From: an uncultured virus (IMG/VR IMGVR_UViG_2687453430_000003)
Lineage: Duplodnaviria; Heunggongvirae; Uroviricota; Caudoviricetes
Length of the DNA stretch: 25,761 bases
Direction: 5' to 3' (one strand)
Virus record (IMG/VR): IMGVR_UViG_2687453430_000003
Part shown: in pieces, positions 3 to 15,809 of the stretch
How positions within the stretch are numbered: the stretch's first letter is position 1
Layout: the number at the start of each line of letters is the position of its first letter
The notes under the pieces: generated by a model
What the model was told of the DNA's origin: nothing
Database searches by the model: none
The model's input: only the letters and a program-made list of their open reading frames with translations
Program-made: the position numbers and the translations under genes

Positions 3-398
3 AACGCGGCTGGCAGCCTCAAGCGGTAGCGACTTCATGTACTGAACCTGACGGGCTACGATGTCGCGCGCTACAGCGCCAACAGGCGTATTTCCCACAA
101 CATCACGTAGCCCGACTGAGATTTGCTCAGACACAGAGCGCCACTGGTTCCACTCTTCCTGTTCAACCTGGGCGAACATCTTTTTACCGACCATTTCAGC
201 CCAGGTCGATATCAGGTCTGAGTAATCAACCAGCGTGGCAGCCGTCTTATCAGCGCTTGCCTGTGAACCATCGTAAGAAGCCGCCACTATTTCGCCGATC
301 TGGTTGGCTATCGCCAGTAGGCTCTTTCTGTACTGACGCTCCGATTTGCGGCGGAGGTTCGGTTTCAGATTCAGCCTCCTCCCACTGAGACTTGGCAT
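3..398 (-). CDS. Phage head morphogenesis / minor head protein (SPP1 gp7, Mu gpF-like), 5' part only; runs off the window
   Basis: Manually translated open frame MPSLSGRRLNLKPNLRRKSERQYRKSLLAIANQIGEIV...QYMKSLPLEAASRV. ATG at 398 is preceded by GAGGA. Position directly after the portal. Start codon uncertain. Confidence 0.75.
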   Translation of the reverse strand, partial: MPSLSGRRLNLKPNLRRKSERQYRKSLLAIANQIGEIVAASYDGSQASADKTAATLVDYSDLISTWAEMVGKKMFAQVEQEEWNQWRSVSEQISVGLRDVVGNTPVGAVARDIVARQVQYMKSLPLEAASRV

Positions 399-1701
399 TG
401 TTTATGTCCTCGTCTGAAATGCTGGCTCCAATGCCTGTCACGTCTGCCATTTCACGCAGGTCTGTCAGTGCGGCATGCTGTGGCATACCCAGATCGCGAA
501 CCGCCGTAGCCAGCGCGTTAGACGTGTTCACTGCGACCGTTGAGCGGTCAACGTCCGACATCTGCCAGAGCGGGTTAAATTCGAAGGTGAAATCGTCCGG
601 CAGCGGTTCGCCGAACTCAGAGCGATGCAGAACATCGAACAGCAGGCGAATATGCGGGCGCAGGTCTCGTTCCTGCTGCGTACCCACATCTCCGTAGTAG
701 TTAGCCAGGTCAGCGTCACCAGTAGAGAACCCTTTCGGTGATTGCCGGAACATGCGCACCAGCGGTATTCCAACAGCACCGGCAATGTCCTCTTTAAACT
801 CGCTCAGCAGGTCAGATAGCCCGGCAAACGAGTAGGAGTGGGTTTCGAATGTGTCTTCGGCGTCGAACAGCGACATGCCTTCGTTTGTCTGAAACTGGCG
901 CACCAAATCCATCTGTTTAATCAACGCTTCATAGGCTGGGCCGCCCATAGCGATAATTTCGCGCAGCTTTTTAATCTTCGCAGTGCGAAGGTGTGCTTTG
1001 TATGCCAGTTGCGCCGCACCCACACTGGTACTGTCATAGGAGGTCAGGCGATCAAAGACGCGCTCAACGACAGACATACCCCATTCGTTTTCCGTAATTT
1101 TCTGCTGGTACGGCAGCTTCACACCGTCCATGCGAATCAGGCGGGAATGGTGCAGTGTCCATGCGGGTAATCCCTGCGCAGTCGTCACGATGTCGTAGAG
1201 CTCAGGTTTTCCGAGGTTGGGCCCAAGCGTTTTAATGCGTCGCGTTAACTGCGGGTTGAGCATCCAGCGGTCGAGAACGGCAAGCCCTTTGAAACTACCT
1301 TTGCCAACTTTATCCAGGATAAGCGGTGTTAACGGTGCCTGTCCTTCGATGAGGATCAGTGCGCCAGCGCCACCATAAAGCCGCGACCATTTCAGCGTCT
1401 CGTTGAGTGCGTCCCATAGCTGAAGTTCTTCAAACTTCGACTCCAGAATTCCGCGACGCTTCGGATCAATCTCGCTGGTAATGCGCACGCCTTTTTTGGT
1501 CATGTCGTCGGCGATGGCATCCACGGCCACGCCAATGATCCACGACGAGCGATACGCCCATTCAATGAGCAGGCGATTGCGGCTGGTATAGTTTGCCCGG
1601 TATGTGGATGCCGCATGCTGGTTAGGCTGTTGCATCCCGACACGGGCGACAAAGTTATCGTAAGAGTCCGCCGTGGCGACTCTTCCTGTTTTCTTCGCCA
1701 A
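250..1701 (-). CDS. Portal protein (DUF1073-type)
   Basis: ORF directly downstream of terL. Motifs GIPLVRMFRQSPKGF..TGDADLANYY and FTFEFNPLWQMS are typical of this portal family. Probable TTG start at 1701 after GGAGGA (ORF track start 1743 overlaps terL). Confidence 0.85.
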   Translation of the reverse strand: MAKKTGRVATADSYDNFVARVGMQQPNQHAASTYRANYTSRNRLLIEWAYRSSWIIGVAVDAIADDMTKKGVRITSEIDPKRRGILESKFEELQLWDALNETLKWSRLYGGAGALILIEGQAPLTPLILDKVGKGSFKGLAVLDRWMLNPQLTRRIKTLGPNLGKPELYDIVTTAQGLPAWTLHHSRLIRMDGVKLPYQQKITENEWGMSVVERVFDRLTSYDSTSVGAAQLAYKAHLRTAKIKKLREIIAMGGPAYEALIKQMDLVRQFQTNEGMSLFDAEDTFETHSYSFAGLSDLLSEFKEDIAGAVGIPLVRMFRQSPKGFSTGDADLANYYGDVGTQQERDLRPHIRLLFDVLHRSEFGEPLPDDFTFEFNPLWQMSDVDRSTVAVNTSNALATAVRDLGMPQHAALTDLREMADVTGIGASISDEDINNAKSQWEEAESETEPPPQIGASVQKEPTGDSQPDRRNSGGFLRWFTGKR

Positions 1702-1705
1702 GGGG

Positions 1706-3319
1706 TTATCCTCCGAGTTTCTTCCAGATATCCAGCGCTGCATTCATTGGGGCATAGTTGATCATCACTGAGTCAGCGAGGTTTGGTGATTTCGTTCCAT
1801 CAGGTTGTTTGTCGACAAGGATTTTCCCAACGCCGTTTTTTGACCACGTTGGCTGCGACAACTCCATCAACAGCCGATCTTTGTTCTTCATCGTGCTGCT
1901 TATTGAAATGATTTCGTCGGGGTTGTAATCCATTCCGTTCAACGCCCGGTAGGTATTACGGAAGAGTTTCCGCAAATGCCACCAGCTCTGTGCTTTTGCA
2001 TTTGCAAAGAAATCTTTGTTGAGACGGGCTGGTTTCCCGTTATCACCAGGAACGGCTTCATCATCGGGATCGAACACAGCACCGCTGCCACGAAATGGAG
2101 TTGCCGTTATTTGCGAAAGTCTTTCTGCGTGGCGCTGTTCGTTAATTACCCGAGCGTCACCACGCGCACCGGCACCGAGACCATCCTCATCGAAGCGAAA
2201 TTCATCGATTCCAAAGTCATCGCAGAAGCCAAAGGCCTTTACAACAGAGGCAAAAATGTCGCTTCCTTCACCAGACCATTCTTCAACCTCCTGCAACAGG
2301 AAGCCGTAGCGTGCAGAGAAACCATTTTTATCCTTGCCCTCGTCGGCTATATCCATAGCACCGAGGCGCTGGCCGCTTGGCTGAATACCAAGTTTGATAT
2401 GAGCATCGACCGCAGCCTGCACCCATTCGGAAGGGATAAGGATGCCCTCTGCCGAAGCCTGATAGTTAAGATCAAGCTCCTGAGCAACGATGACCGGGTT
2501 ATCAATTTTTTCACACTCTTTGCGATACCACTCATCATCCTTGCGCGGGTCACTGCGCCAGTGGAATGTGAATACCGGAATTTTTCCGCTGTGGCGCTTC
2601 TGCGCGAACGGGTTATTCATGCCGTTTACTGATGAGAGATCGATACGGCAACGTGTGGTTTGTGAAAGAGCTGCGTCAATAAGTAACGGACGTTGCAGGA
2701 AAGCAGCCTCATCCACGAAATAAAGCGTGGTACGGTCACCACGTCCGATGTTGTCTCCGGCCTCACCTTTCAATACTGCTCCAGTCTCCGGGAACTCTAC
2801 GCGCATATAGGGAGCGTGTTTTTTCTCGTCCCACTTTCCGCGAAACTCTACCGGAAGCGTTTCAACGAATTTACGTGCTTTCCAGAAAAGGGCTTTTGGG
2901 TCACCAGTGCTGTCTACGTATTCCTCTTTTCGGGAACCGAAGCCAATCACCATTTCTTTATTGAACAGACAAAGGGAGCAAGCAAGACCGATAGAAGTCC
3001 AGCTCAGACCCATTTCACGGCTTTTCTCCGTTAACCCATGCTCAAGGTTAGAGCGACGCTCCATTATCCAGTTGATCCATTCCTCTTGCCGGGGGAACAG
3101 AAGAAACGGGATAGTGACTGGCAAACCATAATCGAGGTTTCGCGGGTCGGTCGTCATCCCCCAGTCAATAATGAACTGAGAAGGATTATCACGATAAAAC
3201 TGCCTGAGCACAGGAAGCATTTCAGGATGCTGACGAATGCGTTGCAACCGCTCCATTCGCCATTCAAAAACCGCGTTATAGTCCGGATTTTTGAAGTCAA
3301 AAGGGAATGGCAGTGGCAT
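1706..3319 (-). CDS. terL: Terminase large subunit
   Basis: 537 aa. Walker A-like [10 protein letters not shown], Walker B YFVDEAA, C-terminal nuclease motifs (GAMDIA...SPNLADS). Lies between terS and portal. Confidence 0.93.
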
Positions 3320-4825: not shown

Positions 4826-5296
4826 CTATTTTAGACATTGCTCACGAATGTAAGATTGCAGCCCAGCAATCATTTTCCAACTGGTTTCGATTCGCTCTCT
4901 GAGGGTGAAATAATCCCGTTCAGCGGCGTCAGTAAGTCTGGGGCTGGCTGCATCATCCAGGCCGGTGGTGCTGGCCGTTCCGTTCGCGGGACACTTGGCG
5001 TTGATGCGCAGCCCACACTTGCCAGAGCTAACGCAACGCTGCAGATCATCAAGCTGCTTTTTCGCATCAGCTAACTCCTTCGTGTATTTCTCATCGAGTG
5101 CGGCAACGTCACGCTGGCGCACCTGCATATCGCCGATAGTGGCGTTAGCCAGGCTGAGTTGTTCAGTGGCTTTATCGCGTTGGTCTTTGTAGGTAATGGC
5201 GTTGTCTCGGTAGTGATTCACCAGCAGGGTCAGGATGCCGATTAGCGCCACCACCAGCATCTGCAGCCAATACCGTTTAACAAGCGCGGCAATCAC
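4826..5296 (-). CDS. Rz: i-spanin Rz
   Basis: N-terminal TM segment, coiled coil ([15 protein letters not shown]), PRL...[21 protein letters not shown]. Follows the endolysin. Confidence 0.93.
4870..5067 (-). CDS. Rz1: o-spanin lipoprotein Rz1, embedded in Rz
   Basis: Alternative frame inside Rz. Signal peptide with lipobox (ALASVG-C) and Pro-rich mature part ([14 protein letters not shown]). Confidence 0.88.
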
Positions 5297-5733
5297 GACA
5301 GGAACAGAGCGCGCTCCGCCTCACGCCGACGGGTAAGCCCATTAAGGACTTTGCCACCAGCTTTATTCCAGCGCGGGAACTCGTCGGCAGCACCGGCATA
5401 ATCACCGGCATTCAGTTTCTTCAACAGCGTGGACGTCGATAGCGACCGTGCACCGAGGTTGTAGGCGAACGACACCAGCGCATCGAACTGGCCCTGCGTC
5501 AGTTTCACGCGCACCAGCTTCAGCACGTCATTCTCGTAACCCACCAGCCCTGTTTTCAGAAGACGCTCTGCCGTAGCCTGGTCGATAGTCATCCCGTTGC
5601 GCAGAGGCTTGCCGTCAACTGCATGGGTCCAGCCGTAACCGATGGTGAGAACGCCGACAGAATCTTTGTACGCAGTCAGGCTGCAGCCTTCGAACTCTTT
5701 GATGAGCGCGATCCCTTTAGGACTGATTTGCAT
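5293..5733 (-). CDS. R: Endolysin, GH24 phage lysozyme (P22 gp19-like)
   Basis: E-X8-D-X5-T catalytic pattern ([22 protein letters not shown]), [26 protein letters not shown]. Confidence 0.95.
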
Positions 5734-6040
5734 CGTCTACCCCGACTTTCTTCGATGTGAACTTTTTAATCAGGGAACCGATAGAAGCAGTCCCGAGATA
5801 GCCGATGAACACACTGCCGATATAAGCCAGATTTGTGCTCAGACCGATAAAGTCGAGGATGTCTCGAACGAACCAGGCGATCATGGCGCACATGATACCG
5901 TCGATTAACGTCTTCGACAGCGTGTCGCCGTTGTAGCGCCCCCGCAAATACGCCATGATGAAAGCCAGTATTGCGCCGATACCCTGCTCCTTAGCTGCCA
6001 GCAGAGCGGCGATGAAATCTTGTTTGTAGGGCATTCGCAT
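5717..6040 (-). CDS. S: Class I holin/antiholin, lambda S family, dual start (107/105 aa)
   Basis: [31 protein letters not shown]. Met-Arg-Met dual start (ATGs at 6040 and 6034) matches the lambda S107/S105 lengths. Three hydrophobic segments. Confidence 0.93.
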
Positions 6041-6050
6041 AAGCCTCACC

Positions 6051-6065
6051 TCCGTTAATGACGGA
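6051..6065 (-). promoter_or_regulatory. sdi-like hairpin over the holin ribosome-binding site
   Basis: TCCGT-CATTA-ACGGA stem overlaps GGAGG upstream of the dual start, as in lambda S structure-directed initiation. Confidence 0.55.
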
Positions 6066-6154
6066 TGGCGCTGTGTGTTTGAAAGGGTCAGGCCCGTCGG
6101 GCTGGATTTAACAACGAAGCGTGTCGATGATGATTCCTGCGGGACCTGATAATA

Positions 6155-6178
6155 AAAAAGCCATGCAAATGCATGGCC
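6155..6178 (-). terminator. Intrinsic terminator upstream of the lysis genes
   Basis: GCCATGC-ATTT-GCATGGC followed by T6 on the minus strand. Confidence 0.75.
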
Positions 6179-6197
6179 TTGTGATTTGAATCCGTTA

Positions 6198-6226
6198 TTT
6201 ACAAAATGTATTCGAGACAGTATCTT
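6198..6226 (+). promoter_or_regulatory. Putative sigma70 promoter for a small RNA
   Basis: TTTACA (6198-6203) - 17 bp - TATCTT (6221-6226), about 80 nt upstream of a plus-strand terminator. Confidence 0.6.
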
Positions 6227-6232
6227 TCGACT

Positions 6233-6312
6233 TCCGGACAAAAAAACATATACCGGGACAAAATCTAAATGTAACTGCCTTGCCTGCATGAAACCATGCT
6301 GGCTTTTTTTTT
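6233..6312 (+). ncRNA. Candidate ~80-nt sRNA convergent to the late operon
   Basis: Bounded by the promoter above and a terminator (GCCTGCATG-AAAC-CATGCTGGC-T9, 6282-6312). 5' hairpin TCCGG/CCGGG with loop ACAAAAAAACATATA. No ORF. Confidence 0.6.
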
Positions 6313-6319
6313 GCCCAAA

Positions 6320-6343
6320 GAAAAAGCCCACCGAAGTGGGCCT
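6320..6343 (-). terminator. Intrinsic terminator
   Basis: GCCCAC-TTCG-GTGGGC followed by TTTTT on the minus strand (UUCG tetraloop). Back-to-back with the plus-strand terminator at 6282-6312. Confidence 0.85.
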
Positions 6344-6482
6344 TACAGCTATCATCATTTTTTATTAGGTGTGGTGCCGGGTGCCTCCCGGTAAGTCGCC
6401 GCCAGTCCACAGACGACTCGCAATGCGCAAAAAAACATATCAGACTGGCAATGCCCCTCCGCATAGGGGGATTCACCACACC
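6320..6482 (-). ncRNA. Candidate ~160-nt structured RNA
   Basis: Closing stem GGTGTGGTG/CACCACACC (6368-6376 with 6474-6482). Internal stems CCCCT/AGGGG, GCCAGTC/GACTGGC and CCGGG/CCCGG. Own promoter and terminator. Confidence 0.65.
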
Positions 6483-6485
6483 AAA

Positions 6486-6514
6486 AATTTAACATCTGAT
6501 GAAACTCGTTTCAA
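6486..6514 (-). promoter_or_regulatory. Putative sigma70 promoter for the structured RNA
   Basis: TTGAAA (6514-6509) - 17 bp - TAAATT (6491-6486) with extended -10 TGn. Predicted start about 6479-6482, at the 5' end of the closing stem. Confidence 0.65.
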
Positions 6515-6530
6515 TGCTCTATGACGATGT

Positions 6531-6572
6531 GACAGGGGTACTGATGCAATGCATCTCGCGAATACCCCTGTC
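6531..6572. other. Stem-loop downstream of tR'
   Basis: Perfect 10-bp inverted repeat GACAGGGGTA/TACCCCTGTC. Function unknown. Confidence 0.6.
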
Positions 6573-6586
6573 GTGTCGCCGGAAAG

Positions 6587-6617
6587 CAAAAAGCCCAAGG
6601 CGTTAACCTCGGGCTTG
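6587..6617 (-). terminator. tR' terminator
   Basis: AAGCCCGAGG-loop-CCTTGGGCTT followed by a T tract, about 50 nt downstream of the pR' start. Confidence 0.85.
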
Positions 6618-6671
6618 AATTCTTTGTGTGTCGACAATCGAAGCTATGGCGACGATATCAGATTTACATGA

Positions 6672-6700
6672 AATATATGCCTTTCAGTTCGGTTTTGCAA
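6672..6700 (-). promoter_or_regulatory. Late promoter pR'
   Basis: TTGCAA - 17 bp - TATATT, overlapping the 3' end of Q as in phage 82-type modules. Confidence 0.8.
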
Positions 6701-7373
6701 GACTTACATCTAAATTTGTCGCCTTTTGTTGTGAACGTGATCGCGTTACCGATATGAGAGCGTCGCTATCAAGCTTCACAAAACTGCTGCGCAGCGCCAG
6801 CCAATGAGGGAGGTAGGTTTCTGTCCATGTGGACTTTGCTACACCAACCAGCTCCGCCAGCGACTGGTATTCATACGTCTCCCGCCCTGCCAGCTCGGCT
6901 TTGACATCCTGCGCGGCCAGCCAGATAAGTTGACGAAGGCGATCGACAGTCTTCTTCGCAATGCGTATGCCGGCCAGCTTCTCGCTGAATGGCTCCCAGG
7001 CCCACTGGGTGATCGCCACCTGGTACTCAAAGCTAACGTTCTCGCTGTAGTTCCACAGCAGCCAAGCTTTCTGGTGGTCATCCAGCGACAGGACCGCGCG
7101 GCGCCATGACGCGGTACCGAACTCTACCGGGCTGACCAGCGCGATGGATGAGCCTTTGGCGCGGGACTGGCTGCCGCTCATCGCCGGACCGTCCGGGTTC
7201 ACTTTCCGGCCGGTTACCGGGTCGGTGATTTTCTTTCGTCCCCGGCTGCGCGCCGTCGCGGTGAACTGCGCGTTTTCGGCGAAAGCTACCAGCTGCCCTT
7301 TAGTCGCCCCGCTAAGATCTGCAGTCGCCACAATGAGCTGCTGACGTACGTATTCCAGTTGCTGACTGTTCAT
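6684..7373 (-). CDS. Q: Late antiterminator Q (phage 82 type)
   Basis: 229 aa. YVRQQLIVATADLSGATKGQL...AKGSSIALVSPVEF..SWRRAVLSL recognised as the Q82 family. C-terminal HTH. Position between nin and pR'. Confidence 0.92.
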   Translation of the reverse strand: MNSQQLEYVRQQLIVATADLSGATKGQLVAFAENAQFTATARSRGRKKITDPVTGRKVNPDGPAMSGSQSRAKGSSIALVSPVEFGTASWRRAVLSLDDHQKAWLLWNYSENVSFEYQVAITQWAWEPFSEKLAGIRIAKKTVDRLRQLIWLAAQDVKAELAGRETYEYQSLAELVGVAKSTWTETYLPHWLALRSSFVKLDSDALISVTRSRSQQKATNLDVSLAKPN

Positions 7374-7486
7374 GCGGCTACCTTCTGTGGCTGGTTGGTT
7401 TTGGTCTGGCTGTGCTTTTCTACTGGCGGCATGCTGGCGCGCTTAACGCTATCAGCCTGGTACCGAAGGAAGTCGGTGTGGTTCAT
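7370..7486 (-). CDS. Small hypothetical protein (38 aa)
   Basis: MNHTDFLRYQADSVKRASMPPVEKHSQTKTNQPQKVAA. ATGA overlaps with both ninG and Q. GGAGG RBS. Confidence 0.65.
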   Translation of the reverse strand: MNHTDFLRYQADSVKRASMPPVEKHSQTKTNQPQKVAA

Positions 7487-8076
7487 GCTGCCTCCTGCTT
7501 TTTCAGTTCTTTAAGTTTGGCGCGGTACTCATCGCGGATCCGGATATAGTCGTCGCGTTTCCATTTCGGTAATTCGTGCGGCCCCATCAGAGCGTCAAAG
7601 CGAGCCTGTCCGATTTTGGTAATCAGCGCCGGGCGGTATGCAATAAGGTTTCCGGATAGATGGTTGTTACAGGGAGCGCACTGGCGATGACAGTTGTCTT
7701 CGTTGAATCGCAGTTCCGGGTTAGCGCCGGTCGTTCGGAAATGACCGGCATGATACTGGCCGTCGTGATGGCGACCGCAGCTGATGCACGGCAGGTTACG
7801 ATCCCGGTACCGGATGAATTCGTTAAACGCCTGCTGAGCCTGTCGGATGAAATAGCTCAGAGGCTTAACCGCCTGCCGGCGTTCGGCCTGGCGCTTACGC
7901 TCAACCTTCTCGACTTTCTTCTTTTCCCGCTGAGCTTCTGCCTTCGCAGTATCATTCGCTACTTTTCCGTAGCGGCAGGCGCACTCAAAGCTACAAACCA
8001 CCTGTCCATTGCGTACCGGGTGGAACCACTGGCGACACGCTTTATGGGCGCACTTTCGGCGAGGCAACTTAGCCAT
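7483..8076 (-). CDS. ninG: NinG/Rap recombination endonuclease
   Basis: AQQAFNEFIRYRD..PCISCG...AGHFRTTGA.PELRFNEDNCHRQC..CN..LSGN. Confidence 0.93.
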   Translation of the reverse strand: MAKLPRRKCAHKACRQWFHPVRNGQVVCSFECACRYGKVANDTAKAEAQREKKKVEKVERKRQAERRQAVKPLSYFIRQAQQAFNEFIRYRDRNLPCISCGRHHDGQYHAGHFRTTGANPELRFNEDNCHRQCAPCNNHLSGNLIAYRPALITKIGQARFDALMGPHELPKWKRDDYIRIRDEYRAKLKELKKQEAA

Positions 8077-8239
8077 GCTGCCTCCGTGCCGCGAGACGCA
8101 GCCATTTCTGATCCACCAGGCGGGCGGTGTAATATTTGAGAGTGGGTATTTCTGACGGGCTCAGTTCCTGCTTGCGCTTGCTGCGCGTCGGTACTTTGTA
8201 GATGCCGCCATTCATGACGCGGTTGATGAGGTTAGCCAT
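8069..8239 (-). CDS. ninE: NinE-family protein
   Basis: Manually translated 56 aa [23 protein letters not shown]...SEIPTLKYYTARLVDQKWLRLAARRQHG resembles lambda NinE. Overlaps both neighbours. Confidence 0.75.
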   Translation of the reverse strand: MANLINRVMNGGIYKVPTRSKRKQELSPSEIPTLKYYTARLVDQKWLRLAARRQHG

Positions 8240-8681
8240 GCTGCTCACCCCACTGTTTCGCCCATTCGATTTCGAGGCGGGATTTCTCGCTGAACTTCAC
8301 ACCCTGCTGCGTGCCGAACCAGTAGATAGCCTCGATGACTTCAACCATCTGTTGAACGGTCATCTTGCTTGTACGCTGACCGAACATCACAACTCCGCCG
8401 TCCAGACCAGGCGCCATTCTCTGCTCTTGTTTTTTAGCCTTGGCGACCATCGCGGTGATCAGGTCTTTCCAGTCGTCAGAGTCGTACTTATTGCCGAACC
8501 AGGTTACCTGGTCAGAGAGGTCTTTCAGTAGCGGCCACATCTTGCGGTTCTGATCCAGAGTGCGCGTCATCTCCTTGATATCGAGAATCAGCGGACGTTT
8601 CTGGTCTACCGGTAATGAGCGGATGAAGTTGATAGCGTTCTGCTTAACGCTTTCGTTAACGAGGTGGAATTGCTGTTTCAT
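8232..8681 (-). CDS. ninB: NinB/Orf recombination protein
   Basis: [23 protein letters not shown]...[20 protein letters not shown] at 8681 after GGAGG. Confidence 0.92.
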
Positions 8682-8776
8682 ACGCCACCTCCGAGAGGTA
8701 ACGCAGAATGCAAGAAATCGCAGGTGCATTTCTGCATCTGTGACTGGAGAAGTGACTTCAGATTTTGTGTGCGCAT
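8678..8776 (-). CDS. NinA-like small protein (32 aa)
   Basis: [43 protein letters not shown] recalled from NinA-type peptides. ATGA overlap with ninB. Confidence 0.55.
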
Positions 8777-11295: not shown

Positions 11296-11591
11296 ACCCC
11301 TACCCTCCCCCAAACCATCAATACCCTTCTCATCGCCGGACTGTTGCGGCACTCCTGAAATATTCCGTTGGTGCAGCTGCGCGCGGTTCCGTCCTGCTCT
11401 TCCGACGTCGCCAGGCGATAAGTCACCGTTCGCCAGACCTTGCTCACCCGGATAATTTTTCGAGACTTTTCCAGATCGATAGCGTTCTTCGTGATGCAGT
11501 TGATGGTCATGCCGCACTCTGTGGCCACATCCTTCGCGGTGAAGGTCCGGTGCGTTTCGAGATAACGCAGAATTGCCTGTTTGCCTTTCAT
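11292..11591 (-). CDS. ren: Ren-like protein
   Basis: MKGKQAILRYLETH.TF.A.DVA...KVWRTVTYRLAT...IFQECRNSPAMRRVL resembles lambda Ren. Same position after the replication genes. Confidence 0.82.
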   Translation of the reverse strand: MKGKQAILRYLETHRTFTAKDVATECGMTINCITKNAIDLEKSRKIIRVSKVWRTVTYRLATSEEQDGTARSCTNGIFQECRNSPAMRRVLMVWGRVGV

Positions 11592-13024
11592 CAGAATCCC
11601 CCTTTCTTTTTCGGCTGCTGCTCACGCCCGCGGCGTTCTGCGGCGGCGGCCTGCTGGTCCGTGTCGTAAATTGCCCCGTTAATCTGATTGCAATAAACCG
11701 TTCCGGTACTGCCGTGGCGGTTGAGTCGCAGGATTAACTCGGTTTCTCCCGGCGGCACGCTGTCATCGAAAGCACCTTCCCGGTGGATGCCAACCCAGTA
11801 GTCGCAGTCCTGCTCAATCTGTCCTGTGTCGCGGGAATCACTCGGCAACGGGCGTTTATTCACTCGCTTCTCCAGTTCACGGTTGAGCTGGGTCAGCAGC
11901 ACGACGACGCAGCCAAGCTCTTTGGCGAGGTTCTTCAGACCTTTGGTGATCATCCCGTAGGCCAGGTCATTACGGTCGGCCTTTTCGGCGGTCATCAGCG
12001 TCAGGTAGTCAACAAGAATCATGCCTACGCAGCCCTTCTCGCGTTTGATTCGGCGGCTTTCGGTAACGATATGCGCCAGTGACAAGCCAGGAGTGTCGTC
12101 GATGTACAGCATGTCGATTTCACTCAGTCTCCCGGCTGTGGCGATCGCCTTCTTAAAGTCGCCGTCGTAGTCGCCCTGGTACTGGTCATCGGCGTCATCC
12201 GTGGCGGGCATGTAAAAAATACTCGGGTTAATGCCGGACTTCTGACCAACAAGCTTTTCGAGGATCTGGTCGCTGGGCATTTCCAGGCTAAACATCAGCG
12301 CTGGCTTTTTCTCGCGAACCGCGCAGTTGATCGCCATCTGCCCGTACAGGGTTGTCTTGCCCATCTTTGGCCTTGCGCCAATCACGAACAGTGAGCCTTT
12401 AACCAGACCTTTCGGCGCCAGCAGTCGGTCGAGTGACGGGATGCCGGTACTCATGCCGCGCTGTTCGCCTGAAGGGTCAAAGCGTTTCTCCAGATCTGCT
12501 ACCCAGTCATCCATAACCTCGCCGAACGACCGCAACCCACGGCGACTACCGGTTTTTGAATGGTCTGCGAGCTGGGTGAAAATACCCTGAATGGCCTCGT
12601 ACTTCTGCGTGGCGCTCATGCCATTGCGGGAATACAGCAGCTCAGTAGCTTCGGTCAGGCGGCTGATACCGTAGCGCTCCATTGCGGCTTCCCGGACTGA
12701 CGCAGCGTATGCCACGATGTTTGCAGCGCTGGGAGTGTTCTTGGCGATCTCCGCCAGGTAAGCAAAGCCACCTACCTGCTCCGCGAGCCCTTTGCCTTCG
12801 AGCGCGTCGAACAATGTCAGACCATCGACTGGCTTGTTGTCGCGGAACATCTGGCGCATCTCGGCAAAGATCAGCTGGTGAGGTCGGCTGTAGAACGATT
12901 CAGGCTTGAGCATCGACAGAACCTTCTGGACTCGCTCGCTGTTGTCATCATCCAGCAGCAGGCCACCGATAACGCTCTGCTCTGCTTCGAGGTTTTGTGG
13001 TACAGCCATGAAATCAGCGGTCAT
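11591..13024 (-). CDS. dnaB: Phage replicative DnaB-like helicase
   Basis: EAEQSVIGGLLL, GARPKMGKT (Walker A), FSLEM, ILVDYLTLM, LTQLNR, SDSRDTGQIEQDCD. Confidence 0.95.
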   Translation of the reverse strand: MTADFMAVPQNLEAEQSVIGGLLLDDDNSERVQKVLSMLKPESFYSRPHQLIFAEMRQMFRDNKPVDGLTLFDALEGKGLAEQVGGFAYLAEIAKNTPSAANIVAYAASVREAAMERYGISRLTEATELLYSRNGMSATQKYEAIQGIFTQLADHSKTGSRRGLRSFGEVMDDWVADLEKRFDPSGEQRGMSTGIPSLDRLLAPKGLVKGSLFVIGARPKMGKTTLYGQMAINCAVREKKPALMFSLEMPSDQILEKLVGQKSGINPSIFYMPATDDADDQYQGDYDGDFKKAIATAGRLSEIDMLYIDDTPGLSLAHIVTESRRIKREKGCVGMILVDYLTLMTAEKADRNDLAYGMITKGLKNLAKELGCVVVLLTQLNRELEKRVNKRPLPSDSRDTGQIEQDCDYWVGIHREGAFDDSVPPGETELILRLNRHGSTGTVYCNQINGAIYDTDQQAAAAERRGREQQPKKKGGF

Positions 13025-13913
13025 CACGATCCCCCTCGCGCACTTCGATGTAGAGCTTTTCGGTCAGGAACTTATCGAATTTCATGCGGCGCCAGGTCTT
13101 CCCGGATTTCTGGTCTGGTCTGTCTTCAAGCATCCAGCGGCAGTTCTGAGCGATGTAACGCAGATAACTTCTGAAACCGTCCATGTCCATAGGCTTGCCG
13201 TCCAGGTTGCGGGCAATTTTGTTAGCCTTACCCCAGAATGTGCGGATCAGATTGCGTCGCTCATCAGTGAGGCATCTCCATCCCCGTGCTTCAGGCAGTT
13301 CGTCTTTCAGGCATTGCCATACTTCATCGCATGACAAACGTGACTTTTTCTCTTCAGCGGGTTTCTGGTCATTTGCGACATACTTACTACCGTTAGGTAG
13401 TAAGTTATTTAATATATTGTTATCTGTGGACACTGGCTGGACATCGGCTGGACACTCCACCTCCGCAGGCATTGGTACGACTGCGTTTGGGATGGACACT
13501 GGCTGGACATCTGCTGGACAAAAATTTGACTGATATTCGTCATATTTGACCACTTTTAGAACAGTAAAACGGTTGTTTGATTTGGTGGTGATCATGCCCA
13601 GATTCTGGAATTTACGGAGCAGTGATTTAACGCGATCAGCGGTCAAACCCGTTTCCATTGCCAGCGTGTTTCGCCCGGTAATGAACTCTCCGCGTTCGCA
13701 GATCACATCGCCGACATCAGTCGATACCAGTGTCTGTTCGTGATTAGCGCGCAGGAGCAGGTGAACCCATAAATGAGCCGCCTCAGCGTCCTTGTAGAAC
13801 GGCACATCCATAATTTTACGGTGCAGCAAGGCAAACCCCTTACCGTCATTCGTGCGCGGTTTCTGGAGCCTTCTGGCCTCTCTGGCTTCGGCTAAATTAG
13901 ATACGTTACCCAC
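13014..13913 (-). CDS. O: Replication initiator (O-like)
   Basis: GFALLHRKI...HLWVHLLLRANH...RGEFITGRNTLA winged-helix N-terminus. Contains iterons. GTG at 13913 is 7 nt after AAGGAG. Confidence 0.88.
   Translation of the reverse strand: MGNVSNLAEAREARRLQKPRTNDGKGFALLHRKIMDVPFYKDAEAAHLWVHLLLRANHEQTLVSTDVGDVICERGEFITGRNTLAMETGLTADRVKSLLRKFQNLGMITTKSNNRFTVLKVVKYDEYQSNFCPADVQPVSIPNAVVPMPAEVECPADVQPVSTDNNILNNLLPNGSKYVANDQKPAEEKKSRLSCDEVWQCLKDELPEARGWRCLTDERRNLIRTFWGKANKIARNLDGKPMDMDGFRSYLRYIAQNCRWMLEDRPDQKSGKTWRRMKFDKFLTEKLYIEVREGDRDDR
13382..13521. repeat. Replication origin: six TGGACA iterons, AT-rich tract and palindrome
   Basis: TGGACA at 13427, 13438, 13449, 13493, 13504 and 13515. AT-rich stretch 13404-13423. 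Inverted repeat ACTTACTACC/GGTAGTAAGT at 13382-13405. Confidence 0.85.
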
Positions 13914-14052
13914 GGCCACTCTCCTTACGTTTCAGCTCTTCCAGGATGGCGCGCATCTTCTCTGCCACAATCGGATTAACCGAGCGGATGAAGCGGTCGC
14001 GGGTTATGTTTTTATGTACAGCGGTATGGTAATAGCGTGGATTTTTTGCCAT
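13906..14052 (-). CDS. Small protein between cII and O (P22 orf48 / DUF2740-like)
   Basis: 48 aa MAKNPRYYHTAVHKNITRDRF. GGAGGA RBS. HKNI.RDRF motif. Confidence 0.7.
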   Translation of the reverse strand: MAKNPRYYHTAVHKNITRDRFIRSVNPIVAEKMRAILEELKRKESGRG

Positions 14053-15090: not shown

Positions 15091-15116
15091 TAAAGGAGTC
15101 ATTAACAGAGGTGAAT

Positions 15117-15809
15117 ATGGGATTCTCGGAGCGCCTGGCGCAGGCAATGAAACATGCTGGATATACACAGGGCCGATTAGCCAAGGATGTCGGCATGGCT
15201 CAGTCCAGCGTCAATAAGCTACTCAAGGAAGCTAACGGCTCTCGTAAGACTGTTGAGATCGCCTCTGTTCTGGGTGTGCGGCCGGAGTGGCTGTCTACTG
15301 GTGAAGGGGAAATGGCTTCAAGTAGCGCAAGAGAACCGTCTGCGCTATACCAGGTTAAGCCGTCACTGAATGGGATTTACCGCGTGGATGTACTCGACGT
15401 TAAAGCCAGCGCTGGACCGGGCAGCATTGTCACCAGCGATTTCATTGAAACTATCCGGGCCATCGAATACACGAATGAGCAGGCGCGCGCTTTGTTCGGC
15501 AACCGGCCAGCTACGCACGTTAAGGTCATTACCGTAAATGGCGACAGTATGGATGGGACGATTTCACCCGGCGATCAGATCTTCGTTGATACCGGCGTTA
15601 CGCATTTTGATGGTGACGGGGTATATGTCTTCGTCTTCGGCAAAACACTGCATGTTAAGCGACTTCAGATGCAGCGAGACAGGCTGGCAGTAATATCCGA
15701 TAACCCGATTTACGAAAAATGGTACGTCGAACCTGAAGATGAGGACGCGTTCTACGTCATGGCTAAAGTACTGCTGAGACAGTCAGTCGATTATAAAAGA
15801 TTCGCATAA
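15117..15809 (+). CDS. cI: CI repressor (HTH + S24 autopeptidase)
   Basis: N-terminal HTH, cleavage site ASAGPG, catalytic NGDSM and VKRL motifs. Confidence 0.95.
   Translation: MGFSERLAQAMKHAGYTQGRLAKDVGMAQSSVNKLLKEANGSRKTVEIASVLGVRPEWLSTGEGEMASSSAREPSALYQVKPSLNGIYRVDVLDVKASAGPGSIVTSDFIETIRAIEYTNEQARALFGNRPATHVKVITVNGDSMDGTISPGDQIFVDTGVTHFDGDGVYVFVFGKTLHVKRLQMQRDRLAVISDNPIYEKWYVEPEDEDAFYVMAKVLLRQSVDYKRFA

Follow-up and report, generated by a model that had tools for sequence, protein, structure and literature searches.

A probable convergent small RNA pair of the EHEC moron-site kind in the Q-to-holin gap of a lambdoid Klebsiella phage

Lambda 6S RNA and StxS of Stx phages are short, terminated late-leader RNAs encoded downstream of the antiterminator gene Q. 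Pairs of small RNAs whose transcripts do not overlap are found in the type I toxin-antitoxin loci tisB/istR and timP/timR. To our knowledge, anti-sRNAs in the slot adjacent to STnc100 are known from E. coli only.

In the passages of Tree et al. 2014 that deal with the moron site downstream of the Q-antiterminated promoter PR', this site 'carried convergent sRNA genes' (PMC4104026). The example given there is EcOnc02 (AsxR) together with EcOnc27, located 3' of stx2B, and a like organisation was described in seven other Sakai prophages (PMC4104026). A convergent layout with back-to-back terminators downstream of Q is already in print. For STnc100, 11 annotated copies were listed in E. coli EDL933, one of them confirmed by Northern blot (PMC5331693), a copy was placed downstream of stx2 in Stx phages (PMC12370729), and the family was related to PasD in a 2026 preprint (Zhu, Shabalina and Storz; 10.64898/2026.05.13.724894). 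The parts of these three sources that concern STnc100 give no established function for it (PMC5331693, PMC12370729, 10.64898/2026.05.13.724894).

The DNA analysed here is a stretch of 25,761 nucleotides from an uncultured virus (IMG/VR record IMGVR_UViG_2687453430_000003), which is called the window throughout. The window is from a lambdoid phage or prophage of Klebsiella. Its positions 6040-6690 matched 45 phage records in megablast, 36 of which were Klebsiella phages, and the top match was Klebsiella phage ST11-VIM1phi8.2 (97.6% identity across 95% of the query). All of the early-right and late genes lie on the minus strand. The protein-coding genes used to place the locus were as follows:

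250-1743, minus strand: portal protein gene
4826-5296, minus strand: Rz gene
5293-5733, minus strand: lysozyme gene
5717-6040, minus strand: holin gene, first gene of the lysis cassette, starting Met-Arg-Met (Pfam PF05106, E 1e-28)
6684-7373, minus strand: antiterminator Q gene, phage 82 type (Pfam PF06323, E 9e-84)
7483-8076, minus strand: NinG gene
8232-8729, minus strand: NinB gene
11591-13027, minus strand: DnaB-type helicase gene (Pfam)
15111-15809, plus strand: cI-like repressor gene

The Q protein carries the name REGQ_BP82 in the record of a relative, and a search by sequence for a solved relative of the protein found none. The RNA pair sits in a 640-nt gap, bounded by Q and the holin gene, on the path of the late transcript. 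Terminator-like sites are numerous around it (10 in 5600-7500 vs 2.1 ± 1.5 in shuffles). The gap contains the following features:

6157-6180, minus strand: second minus-strand terminator (T3), separating the short unit from the holin gene, boundary of the slot (scan)
6198-6226, plus strand: promoter of the short RNA, TTTACA-17-TATCTT, 9/12 matches (scan)
6233-6312, plus strand: short convergent RNA of ~80 nt in the 'anti-sRNA slot', start predicted
6239-6251, plus strand: CAAAAAAACAUAU, located in the 5' hairpin's 15-nt loop and complementary to 6428-6440
6282-6312, plus strand: terminator of the short RNA, hairpin 6282-6303 (9-bp stem) and T9 at 6304-6312
6313-6508, minus strand: STnc100-family RNA, the long RNA of the pair, body ~6480 to 6318 (Rfam RF02076)
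6344-6323, minus strand: intrinsic terminator of STnc100, TTCG loop followed by T5 (scan)
6428-6440, minus strand: AUAUGUUUUUUUG in the loop of the STnc100 variable hairpin (sequence, fold, Rfam consensus)
6514-6486, minus strand: promoter-like site of STnc100, TTGAAA-17-TAAATT, with TG before the -10 hexamer (scan)
6590-6668, minus strand: isrJ-family small RNA unit (Rfam RF01393, 57.2 bits, cut-off 37)
6616-6591, minus strand: terminator of the isrJ unit (terminator scan)
6700-6672, minus strand: promoter-like site of the isrJ unit, TTGCAA-17-TATATT (promoter scan)

The isrJ unit begins 16 nt past the stop codon of Q. For the remainder of the gap, a sequence-only reading of the window had proposed two convergent, self-contained small transcription units in the slot between Q and the lysis genes, and the analysis supports this. 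The plus-strand unit was described as TTTACA-17-TATCTT followed by a hairpin and T9, and the minus-strand unit as TTGAAA-17-TAAATT followed by a UUCG hairpin and T5; both are present (6198-6226 with 6282-6312, and 6514-6486 with 6344-6323, respectively). As also proposed, the units do not overlap, and they abut at 6312|6313 with their terminators back to back. The further proposal that the pair is independent of Q held in part: the units have their own promoters and stand with a different Q in one related locus (L260), but both lie on the path of the Q-modified late transcript. In ST974-OXA48phi18.2, a tRNA and an ORF separate the cassette from a different Q gene, which precedes it by ~1.1 kb.

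The long minus-strand RNA is a full-length member of the STnc100 family. It scored 104.4 bits against a gathering cut-off of 47 and covered model positions 1-206 of 206 (Rfam RF02076). The context agrees with this assignment, as the Q and holin genes flank the RNA and it has its own terminator. A consensus of TTGA.. and TAAAT-like hexamers was present upstream of 174 distinct members of the family. Four sequencing runs were mapped, of which X21 alone was informative (X24 gave 1 read). From X21, a set of raw single-cell RNA-seq reads, ~2% of the run was read and 89 reads were mapped. The depth was 12-34 across 6350-6474, where first mates lay on the plus strand, and it dropped at ~6475. A contig break at 6482 was rejected as the 5' end, being a repeat branch common to other STnc100 copies; the Logan contigs of runs X1 and X12 indicate presence only.

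Across the family, the variable region of STnc100 spans 50-84 nt, in steps that are not multiples of three. The idea that the locus might be a type I toxin-antitoxin or addiction module found nothing to sustain it here, with no conserved frame, non-triplet steps in the variable region, and no Pfam match. A type I toxin ORF was rejected, as the lone frame (6195-6479) crosses the terminator and has no Pfam match.

The short plus-strand unit looks like a real gene. Its predicted fold consists of a 5' hairpin, an A-rich linker, a terminator hairpin, and U9 (-17.1 kcal/mol, z -2.2). The terminator scan placed the plus-strand hairpin at 6286-6299, with the T-run after it, and there is no upstream plus-strand gene that so strong a terminator (9-bp stem, U8-U10) could serve. 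Loci of the short unit were fished from IMG/VR and metagenomes with a 20-nt motif (6272-6291) and earlier loci were added, which yielded at least 188 loci and at least 73 distinct 195-nt segments; columns 6272-6291 are invariant by construction, being the fishing motif itself.

Among the matches listed, the 73 distinct copies varied in 0 of the 12 promoter hexamer columns and in 6 of the 17 spacer columns, where the variant sequences totalled 48. The hexamers were intact in 73/73 of these copies, whatever the neighbour. Within the same listed matches, the pair 6233·6257 is U·G in 73/73 distinct copies and the pair 6285·6300 in 65/73, each of which pairs in the plus sense only, and a C to U change at 6235 in one sequence results in an additional U·G. 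The pair 6288·6297 is A·C in 6/73, breaking the plus-sense stem, and the window's own pair 6285·6300 is U·U. In run X21, ~3 reads in the orientation opposite to STnc100 were confined to 6225-6299 (depth 0.4-3), as would suit a plus-strand RNA inside the predicted limits. There was no signal at 6000-6224, and 6225-6299 was the only part covered between 6000 and 6349. Plus-sense reads occurred in similar number at 6500-6599, where no unit is predicted.

The short unit was found in 4 of 50,697 phage records, all of them Klebsiella, and its copies are at least 94.7% identical, forming one narrow lineage. No homologue was found in 5,426 complete E. coli genomes, and no Rfam match was found at E up to 10 (901-nt and 141-nt searches). 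The Rfam search thus placed the long RNA in STnc100 and left the short RNA without a family. Membership in AgvB or AsxR (RF02702, RF02703) was rejected, since there was no model match at E up to 10; the identity to AgvB in an alignment was ~0.5, and the conserved 3' region of ~42 nt in the AgvB and AsxR models is unmatched by the short RNA. Its predicted fold has traits relevant to Hfq, namely a terminator with a long U-tail and an A-rich loop. Judged by its sequence, the short RNA would represent a novel family within an established slot. Neither of two 14-nt motifs taken from this RNA, and none of the names STnc100, isrJ, and AgvB, is present in the accessible text of a Klebsiella RIL-seq study or in its 5 supplementary files (PMC10907235).

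That the slot hosts AgvB or AsxR, as the sequence-only reading stated, was confirmed by related loci and by Tree et al. 2014. In L192, STnc100 (790-980, plus strand) is directly followed by an Rfam AgvB (981-1042, minus strand, 96.5 bits), and in L214, STnc100 (787-979, plus strand) by AgvB (980-1041, minus strand, 96.5 bits). These AgvB genes abut STnc100 in back-to-back geometry identical to that of the window pair. Opposite-strand terminators were located within 200 nt in 25 of 167 non-identical regions downstream of STnc100, mostly 64-71 nt past the conserved motif and with at least 5 unrelated hairpin sequences, and in many relatives tRNA genes or nothing occupy the slot. Given this variety, from AgvB to unrelated hairpins and tRNA genes, the slot is a site for cargo whose contents can be exchanged.

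Other targets of the short RNA were searched for. In the AgvB/AsxR class, the 5' region imitates the site to which the seed of a core sRNA binds (GcvB R1 or FnrS). The AgvB of L192, used as a control, regained its known 14-bp helix with the GcvB of G001, the genome carrying the same locus as the window. For the short RNA, the best Watson-Crick helix with this GcvB was 8 bp, and 43 of 300 shuffles did as well; GcvB is thus unsupported as its target, with 8 bp vs 14 bp for the control. Further loop targets in the window were limited to 2-mismatch sites at 14004 and 16421, and no linker targets were found in the window besides the linker itself. Near-matches of the loop in G001 (at most 1 mismatch) numbered 14 vs 10 for the reversed control pattern, which is no enrichment.

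The reading that we prefer, with a probability of roughly 0.6, is that the locus is a convergent prophage sRNA pair of the EHEC moron-site kind, in which the loop match between the partners is not kept as a co-evolving module. On the minus strand would be the STnc100-family RNA, served by a sigma-70-type promoter and a terminator of its own. Its plus-strand counterpart would be an RNA of ~80 nt, restricted to a Klebsiella lineage, which takes the AgvB/AsxR slot and is not a member of either family by sequence. Both RNAs would be made in the lysogen without Q, from their own promoters, as the few plus-sense reads weakly indicate for the short one. By analogy with the RNAs of the EHEC slot, the short RNA is most likely a base-pairing or sponge RNA. 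It would be antisense by construction to STnc100 read-through or to the Q-antiterminated late leader, and in this lineage it may also bind the STnc100 loop.

The alternative that survives best is the model of the sequence-only reading, confined to this lineage, which we regard as doubtful: the short RNA would be a dedicated anti-sRNA with an A-rich hairpin loop that kisses the U-rich variable loop of STnc100 across 13 bp, leading to blocking or decay. The two 13-mers on which it was built are present, and their loop-to-loop arrangement was borne out. The sequence CAAAAAAACATAT occurs at 6239-6251 and 6428-6440, forming a perfect 13-nt Watson-Crick match between the RNAs. It is located within the predicted 15-nt hairpin loop of the short RNA and mostly within a predicted loop of the long RNA, which is a hairpin loop in the Rfam consensus. 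The 13-nt match is real and not due to chance, because it is rare in local resamplings (any 13-mer direct repeat in just 10 of 5000 first-order Markov resamplings of 6150-6520) and because the exact 13-mer is present only twice in G001 (6.2 Mb), the two copies lying 188 nt apart in the same locus. When the whole window was resampled, at least one 13-mer repeat pair appeared in 13% of 200 resamplings; the real window has three distinct pairs. The model also gains from the slot being known for anti-sRNAs and from a helix length comparable with that of the validated AgvB-GcvB interaction (14 bp in the control). By duplex energy, the cognate pair of the window ranked ~5 against 147 non-cognate STnc100 bodies, only about 5 of which surpassed it. 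Against these points stands the weakness of the duplex (-10.7 kcal/mol), with A-U making up 11 of the 13 pairs, so that the low-complexity caveat attached to the 13-mer stands. RNAcofold of both RNAs was uninformative, as the dimer skips the 13-mer and loop-shuffled controls share the ddG of -2.6; the RNAcofold model cannot represent loop-loop kissing.

Conservation of the match was assessed by the longest stretch of the neighbouring 255 nt that is perfectly complementary to the short unit. Among the matches listed, this was at least 13 nt in 102 of 182 loci (53 of 104 distinct sequences), 11-12 nt in 52 loci (30 distinct sequences), and at most 8 nt in 28 loci (21 distinct sequences). The match was therefore kept at 11 nt or more in 154/182 of the loci listed, which speaks for the dedicated anti-sRNA, with the proviso that the 182 loci, including these 154, are largely one lineage and not independent. 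An incidental match does not explain this retention, nor that the only pair of copies in G001 is this one. In the 28 listed loci with at most 8 nt, however, the 13-mer of the short unit is essentially unchanged, and the unit stands intact beside a non-matching STnc100 or none. Overall, the short unit had at least 7 other STnc100 loop variants as neighbours, or had no 5' part of STnc100 next to it. That its promoter hexamers stayed intact in all 73 distinct copies listed, regardless of the neighbour, is a further point against a dedicated inhibitor.

Single changes in either 13-mer were uncompensated. Among the matches listed, those in the short unit were CATGTA (2 loci), TATATA (1 locus), CATTTA (1 locus), and CAATA (2 loci), and that in STnc100 was ATATTTTTTTTTG (1 locus). 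Run-length variants were mostly mismatched in the same set (A6/T7 in 31 loci, A7/T8 in 11, A7/T6 in 4, and A8/T7 in 3), with matched A8/T8 in 2 loci. Of the 8 loci fished with the STnc100 motif that have the matching T7-loop variant of STnc100, 7 carry the short unit and one, L179, is without it. The two 13-mers do not co-vary, and no change is compensated. Co-variation of the seeds across homologous loci, on which the sequence-only reading had staked its co-evolving effector/inhibitor module, is absent in both directions, and the 28 of 182 listed loci with at most 8 nt of complement, together with L179, weigh against such a module.

Other convergent lineages do not show the complementarity either. 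Among 169 non-identical STnc100 units, only those of this lineage have a variable region that matches the 300 nt downstream over at least 11 nt, the exceptions being tandem STnc100 copies. Cognate partners in other lineages ranked 30-128 against the 147 non-cognate bodies, and in L186, where the same short unit stands beside a different STnc100, the rank was 77 of 147. Complementarity as a general property of convergent partners was accordingly rejected. The STnc100 and short-unit genes reassort freely with non-matching partners. Because both genes recombine in this way, the 13-mer match is not maintained as a module. It follows that the pair is neither an addiction system nor a toxin-antitoxin system. 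The sequence comparisons leave a dedicated RNA/anti-RNA module as a possibility for this lineage alone. Mutual targeting is the sole novel element of the proposal, and it fails the co-variation test.

A bolder version, which we consider unlikely, is that the slot RNA now targets its own convergent neighbour where it formerly targeted a host sRNA, with its loop titrating the variable loop of STnc100. If this is true, the seed of the STnc100/PasD family, whose function is unexplained, would lie in the hypervariable loop. The pair would then be a self-buffered regulator, with the ratio between the two promoters determining its output, and the regulator would be rewired at each recombination swap of partners.

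Improbable to a further degree is a role mainly in cis, in which the convergent promoter and the antisense RNA would dampen minus-strand transcription leaking through the STnc100 terminator in the direction of the holin gene. Colliding polymerases, or RNase III cutting the 80-bp duplex, would be the means, and the 13-mer would be irrelevant. In this way, the lysogen would be guarded against premature lysis, or the timing of lysis would be set. The layout suits such a role, as minus-strand terminators (6344-6323 and 6180-6157) bracket the unit just upstream of the holin gene, and the short RNA is complementary over its whole length to the late leader, a minus-strand transcript running across it (ddG ~-99.5 kcal/mol relative to the monomers, vs -10.7 kcal/mol for the 13-mer). 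A hairpin resembling T3 is similarly placed beside the AgvB-type (L192) and L152-type cassettes, in an alignment of low identity (0.41-0.59 pairwise), and AsxR is antisense to the stx2 transcript according to the passages of Tree et al. on that RNA (PMC4104026). On the other hand, tRNA genes or nothing in the slot of many relatives make a guard appear dispensable, and the 13-mer is left unexplained. A third minus-strand sRNA ending at T3 is unsupported, because the promoter scan found no minus-strand promoter within 6312-6200.

That there is no short gene at all, the plus-strand promoter and terminator being incidental and the 13-mer a relic of local duplication or recombination, is highly improbable: the promoter match of just 9/12, the ~3 reads equalled by unexplained plus-sense reads at 6500-6599, the single narrow lineage (copies at least 94.7% identical), and the lack of an Rfam family fit it, but hexamers that are invariant in the 73 distinct copies listed while the spacer varies, strand-specific U·G pairs, a strong 9-bp stem with U8-U10 and no other plus-strand gene to terminate, and a position and orientation the same as those of the validated AgvB do not.

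Under the preferred reading of a convergent pair of the EHEC kind, the locus would extend the convergent-pair design to Klebsiella phages and contribute what appears to be a novel family of short RNAs. STnc100/PasD RNAs rank among the commonest prophage RNAs of enterobacteria, and the 13-mer offers a concrete candidate interaction that points at the STnc100 variable loop as a pairing surface. The negative result is useful in itself: the pair is neither a toxin-antitoxin nor an addiction module, and the two halves reassort freely.

Compared with known systems, the locus shares with tisB/istR and timP/timR two small transcripts, divergent or convergent, and a short complementarity in trans; unlike in those loci, the long RNA here has no toxin reading frame. 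Like lambda 6S RNA and StxS, it has a short terminated RNA in the late leader past Q, but it differs from them in that the first unit after Q is an isrJ homologue and not STnc100, and in that the STnc100 cassette of L260 is ~1.1 kb from a different Q gene. The long RNA resembles STnc100 and PasD1/PasD2 in being full-length and prophage-borne, its 5' and 3' hairpins being conserved and its middle hypervariable; no difference is essential, the host here being Klebsiella and not Salmonella or E. coli. With AgvB-GcvB, the locus has in common a short prophage RNA in the same slot and a 13-14 nt pairing with the seed of another sRNA, which is a candidate pairing here. The target of AgvB is a core-genome sRNA and the interaction is experimentally validated, whereas here the pairing is predicted and unconserved, and its candidate target is the neighbouring phage RNA.

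The closest likeness is to the EHEC convergent pairs (EcOnc27/STnc100-type with AsxR/AgvB). The short partner here differs from theirs in having no AgvB or AsxR model match, in a predicted length of ~80 nt vs 51-60 nt for AgvB/AsxR, in having no E. coli homologue among the 5,426 complete genomes, in having no GcvB complementarity, and in matching its own neighbour over 13 nt, a feature unreported for the EHEC pairs. What the window shares with the EHEC pairs is the position downstream of Q/PR' and upstream of the lysis genes, the facing sRNA genes with back-to-back terminators and one STnc100-type partner, and apparently expression in lysogens, which is weakly shown here and presumed for the short RNA.

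The late genes of the window lie on the minus strand, and two features were placed along the path of their transcript from Q, the phage 82-type antiterminator gene, to the lysis cassette:

6590-6700, minus strand, isrJ-family RNA unit (Rfam RF01393, 57.2 bits)
6157-6180, minus strand, third minus-strand terminator, between the short unit (the plus-strand RNA convergent with the small RNA STnc100) and the holin gene

The isrJ-family RNA starts 16 nt downstream of the Q stop codon, and its own promoter-like site and terminator were found in the scan. In two related loci (L002 and L007), isrJ is placed behind Q in the same way. In phages with a phage 82-type Q, the isrJ-family RNA may represent the late transcript that terminates close to its promoter. 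Terminators were located at 6616-6591, 6344-6323, and 6180-6157, and the late transcript therefore has to cross three of them before reaching the lysis genes.

A few plus-sense reads of the single-cell RNA-seq run X21 (depth 1–2) were placed at 6500-6599, in the spacer from isrJ to the STnc100 promoter; the plus strand has no predicted promoter at 6500-6599.

STnc100 was found in tandem, in two or three copies, in many genomes and viral contigs (L035, L039, L040, L051, L080, L140, L152, and other loci). The conserved STnc100 motifs in these loci were spaced by ~220–270 nt or ~480 nt, and the variable regions of the copies were unlike one another. A Klebsiella-type short unit (97.7% identity) was also found in a very short contig of low coverage deposited under Halomonas elongata (L046; 377 nt, cov 0.73 in the contig name), where it is likely a contamination of the assembly.

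Further repeats were recorded in the window, among them:

13427-13531, iteron-like array, within an ORF of 301 aa that lies upstream of the gene for the DnaB helicase

The array consists of four overlapping 28-nt copies based on GCTGGACA with 11-nt spacing. The 301-aa ORF containing it had no match in Pfam. Apart from the array, TTAGCCATGCTGC is a second 13-mer direct repeat (8069-8081 and 8232-8244, 163 nt apart), whose copies are close to the NinG and NinB gene starts and probably reflect alike gene-start or overlap contexts.

The array at 13427-13531 is what would be expected of a lambdoid origin inside an O-like gene. The holin gene starts with Met-Arg-Met (6032-6040, minus strand), a beginning that resembles the motif by which lambda S has a dual start (holin/antiholin). 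AgvB-type cassettes, named after the anti-sRNA family of E. coli phages, have a flanking hairpin in a position similar to that of the 6157-6180 terminator. In Gifsy-1, unlike in the window, the gene followed by isrJ is STM2616, and Q is followed by isrK.
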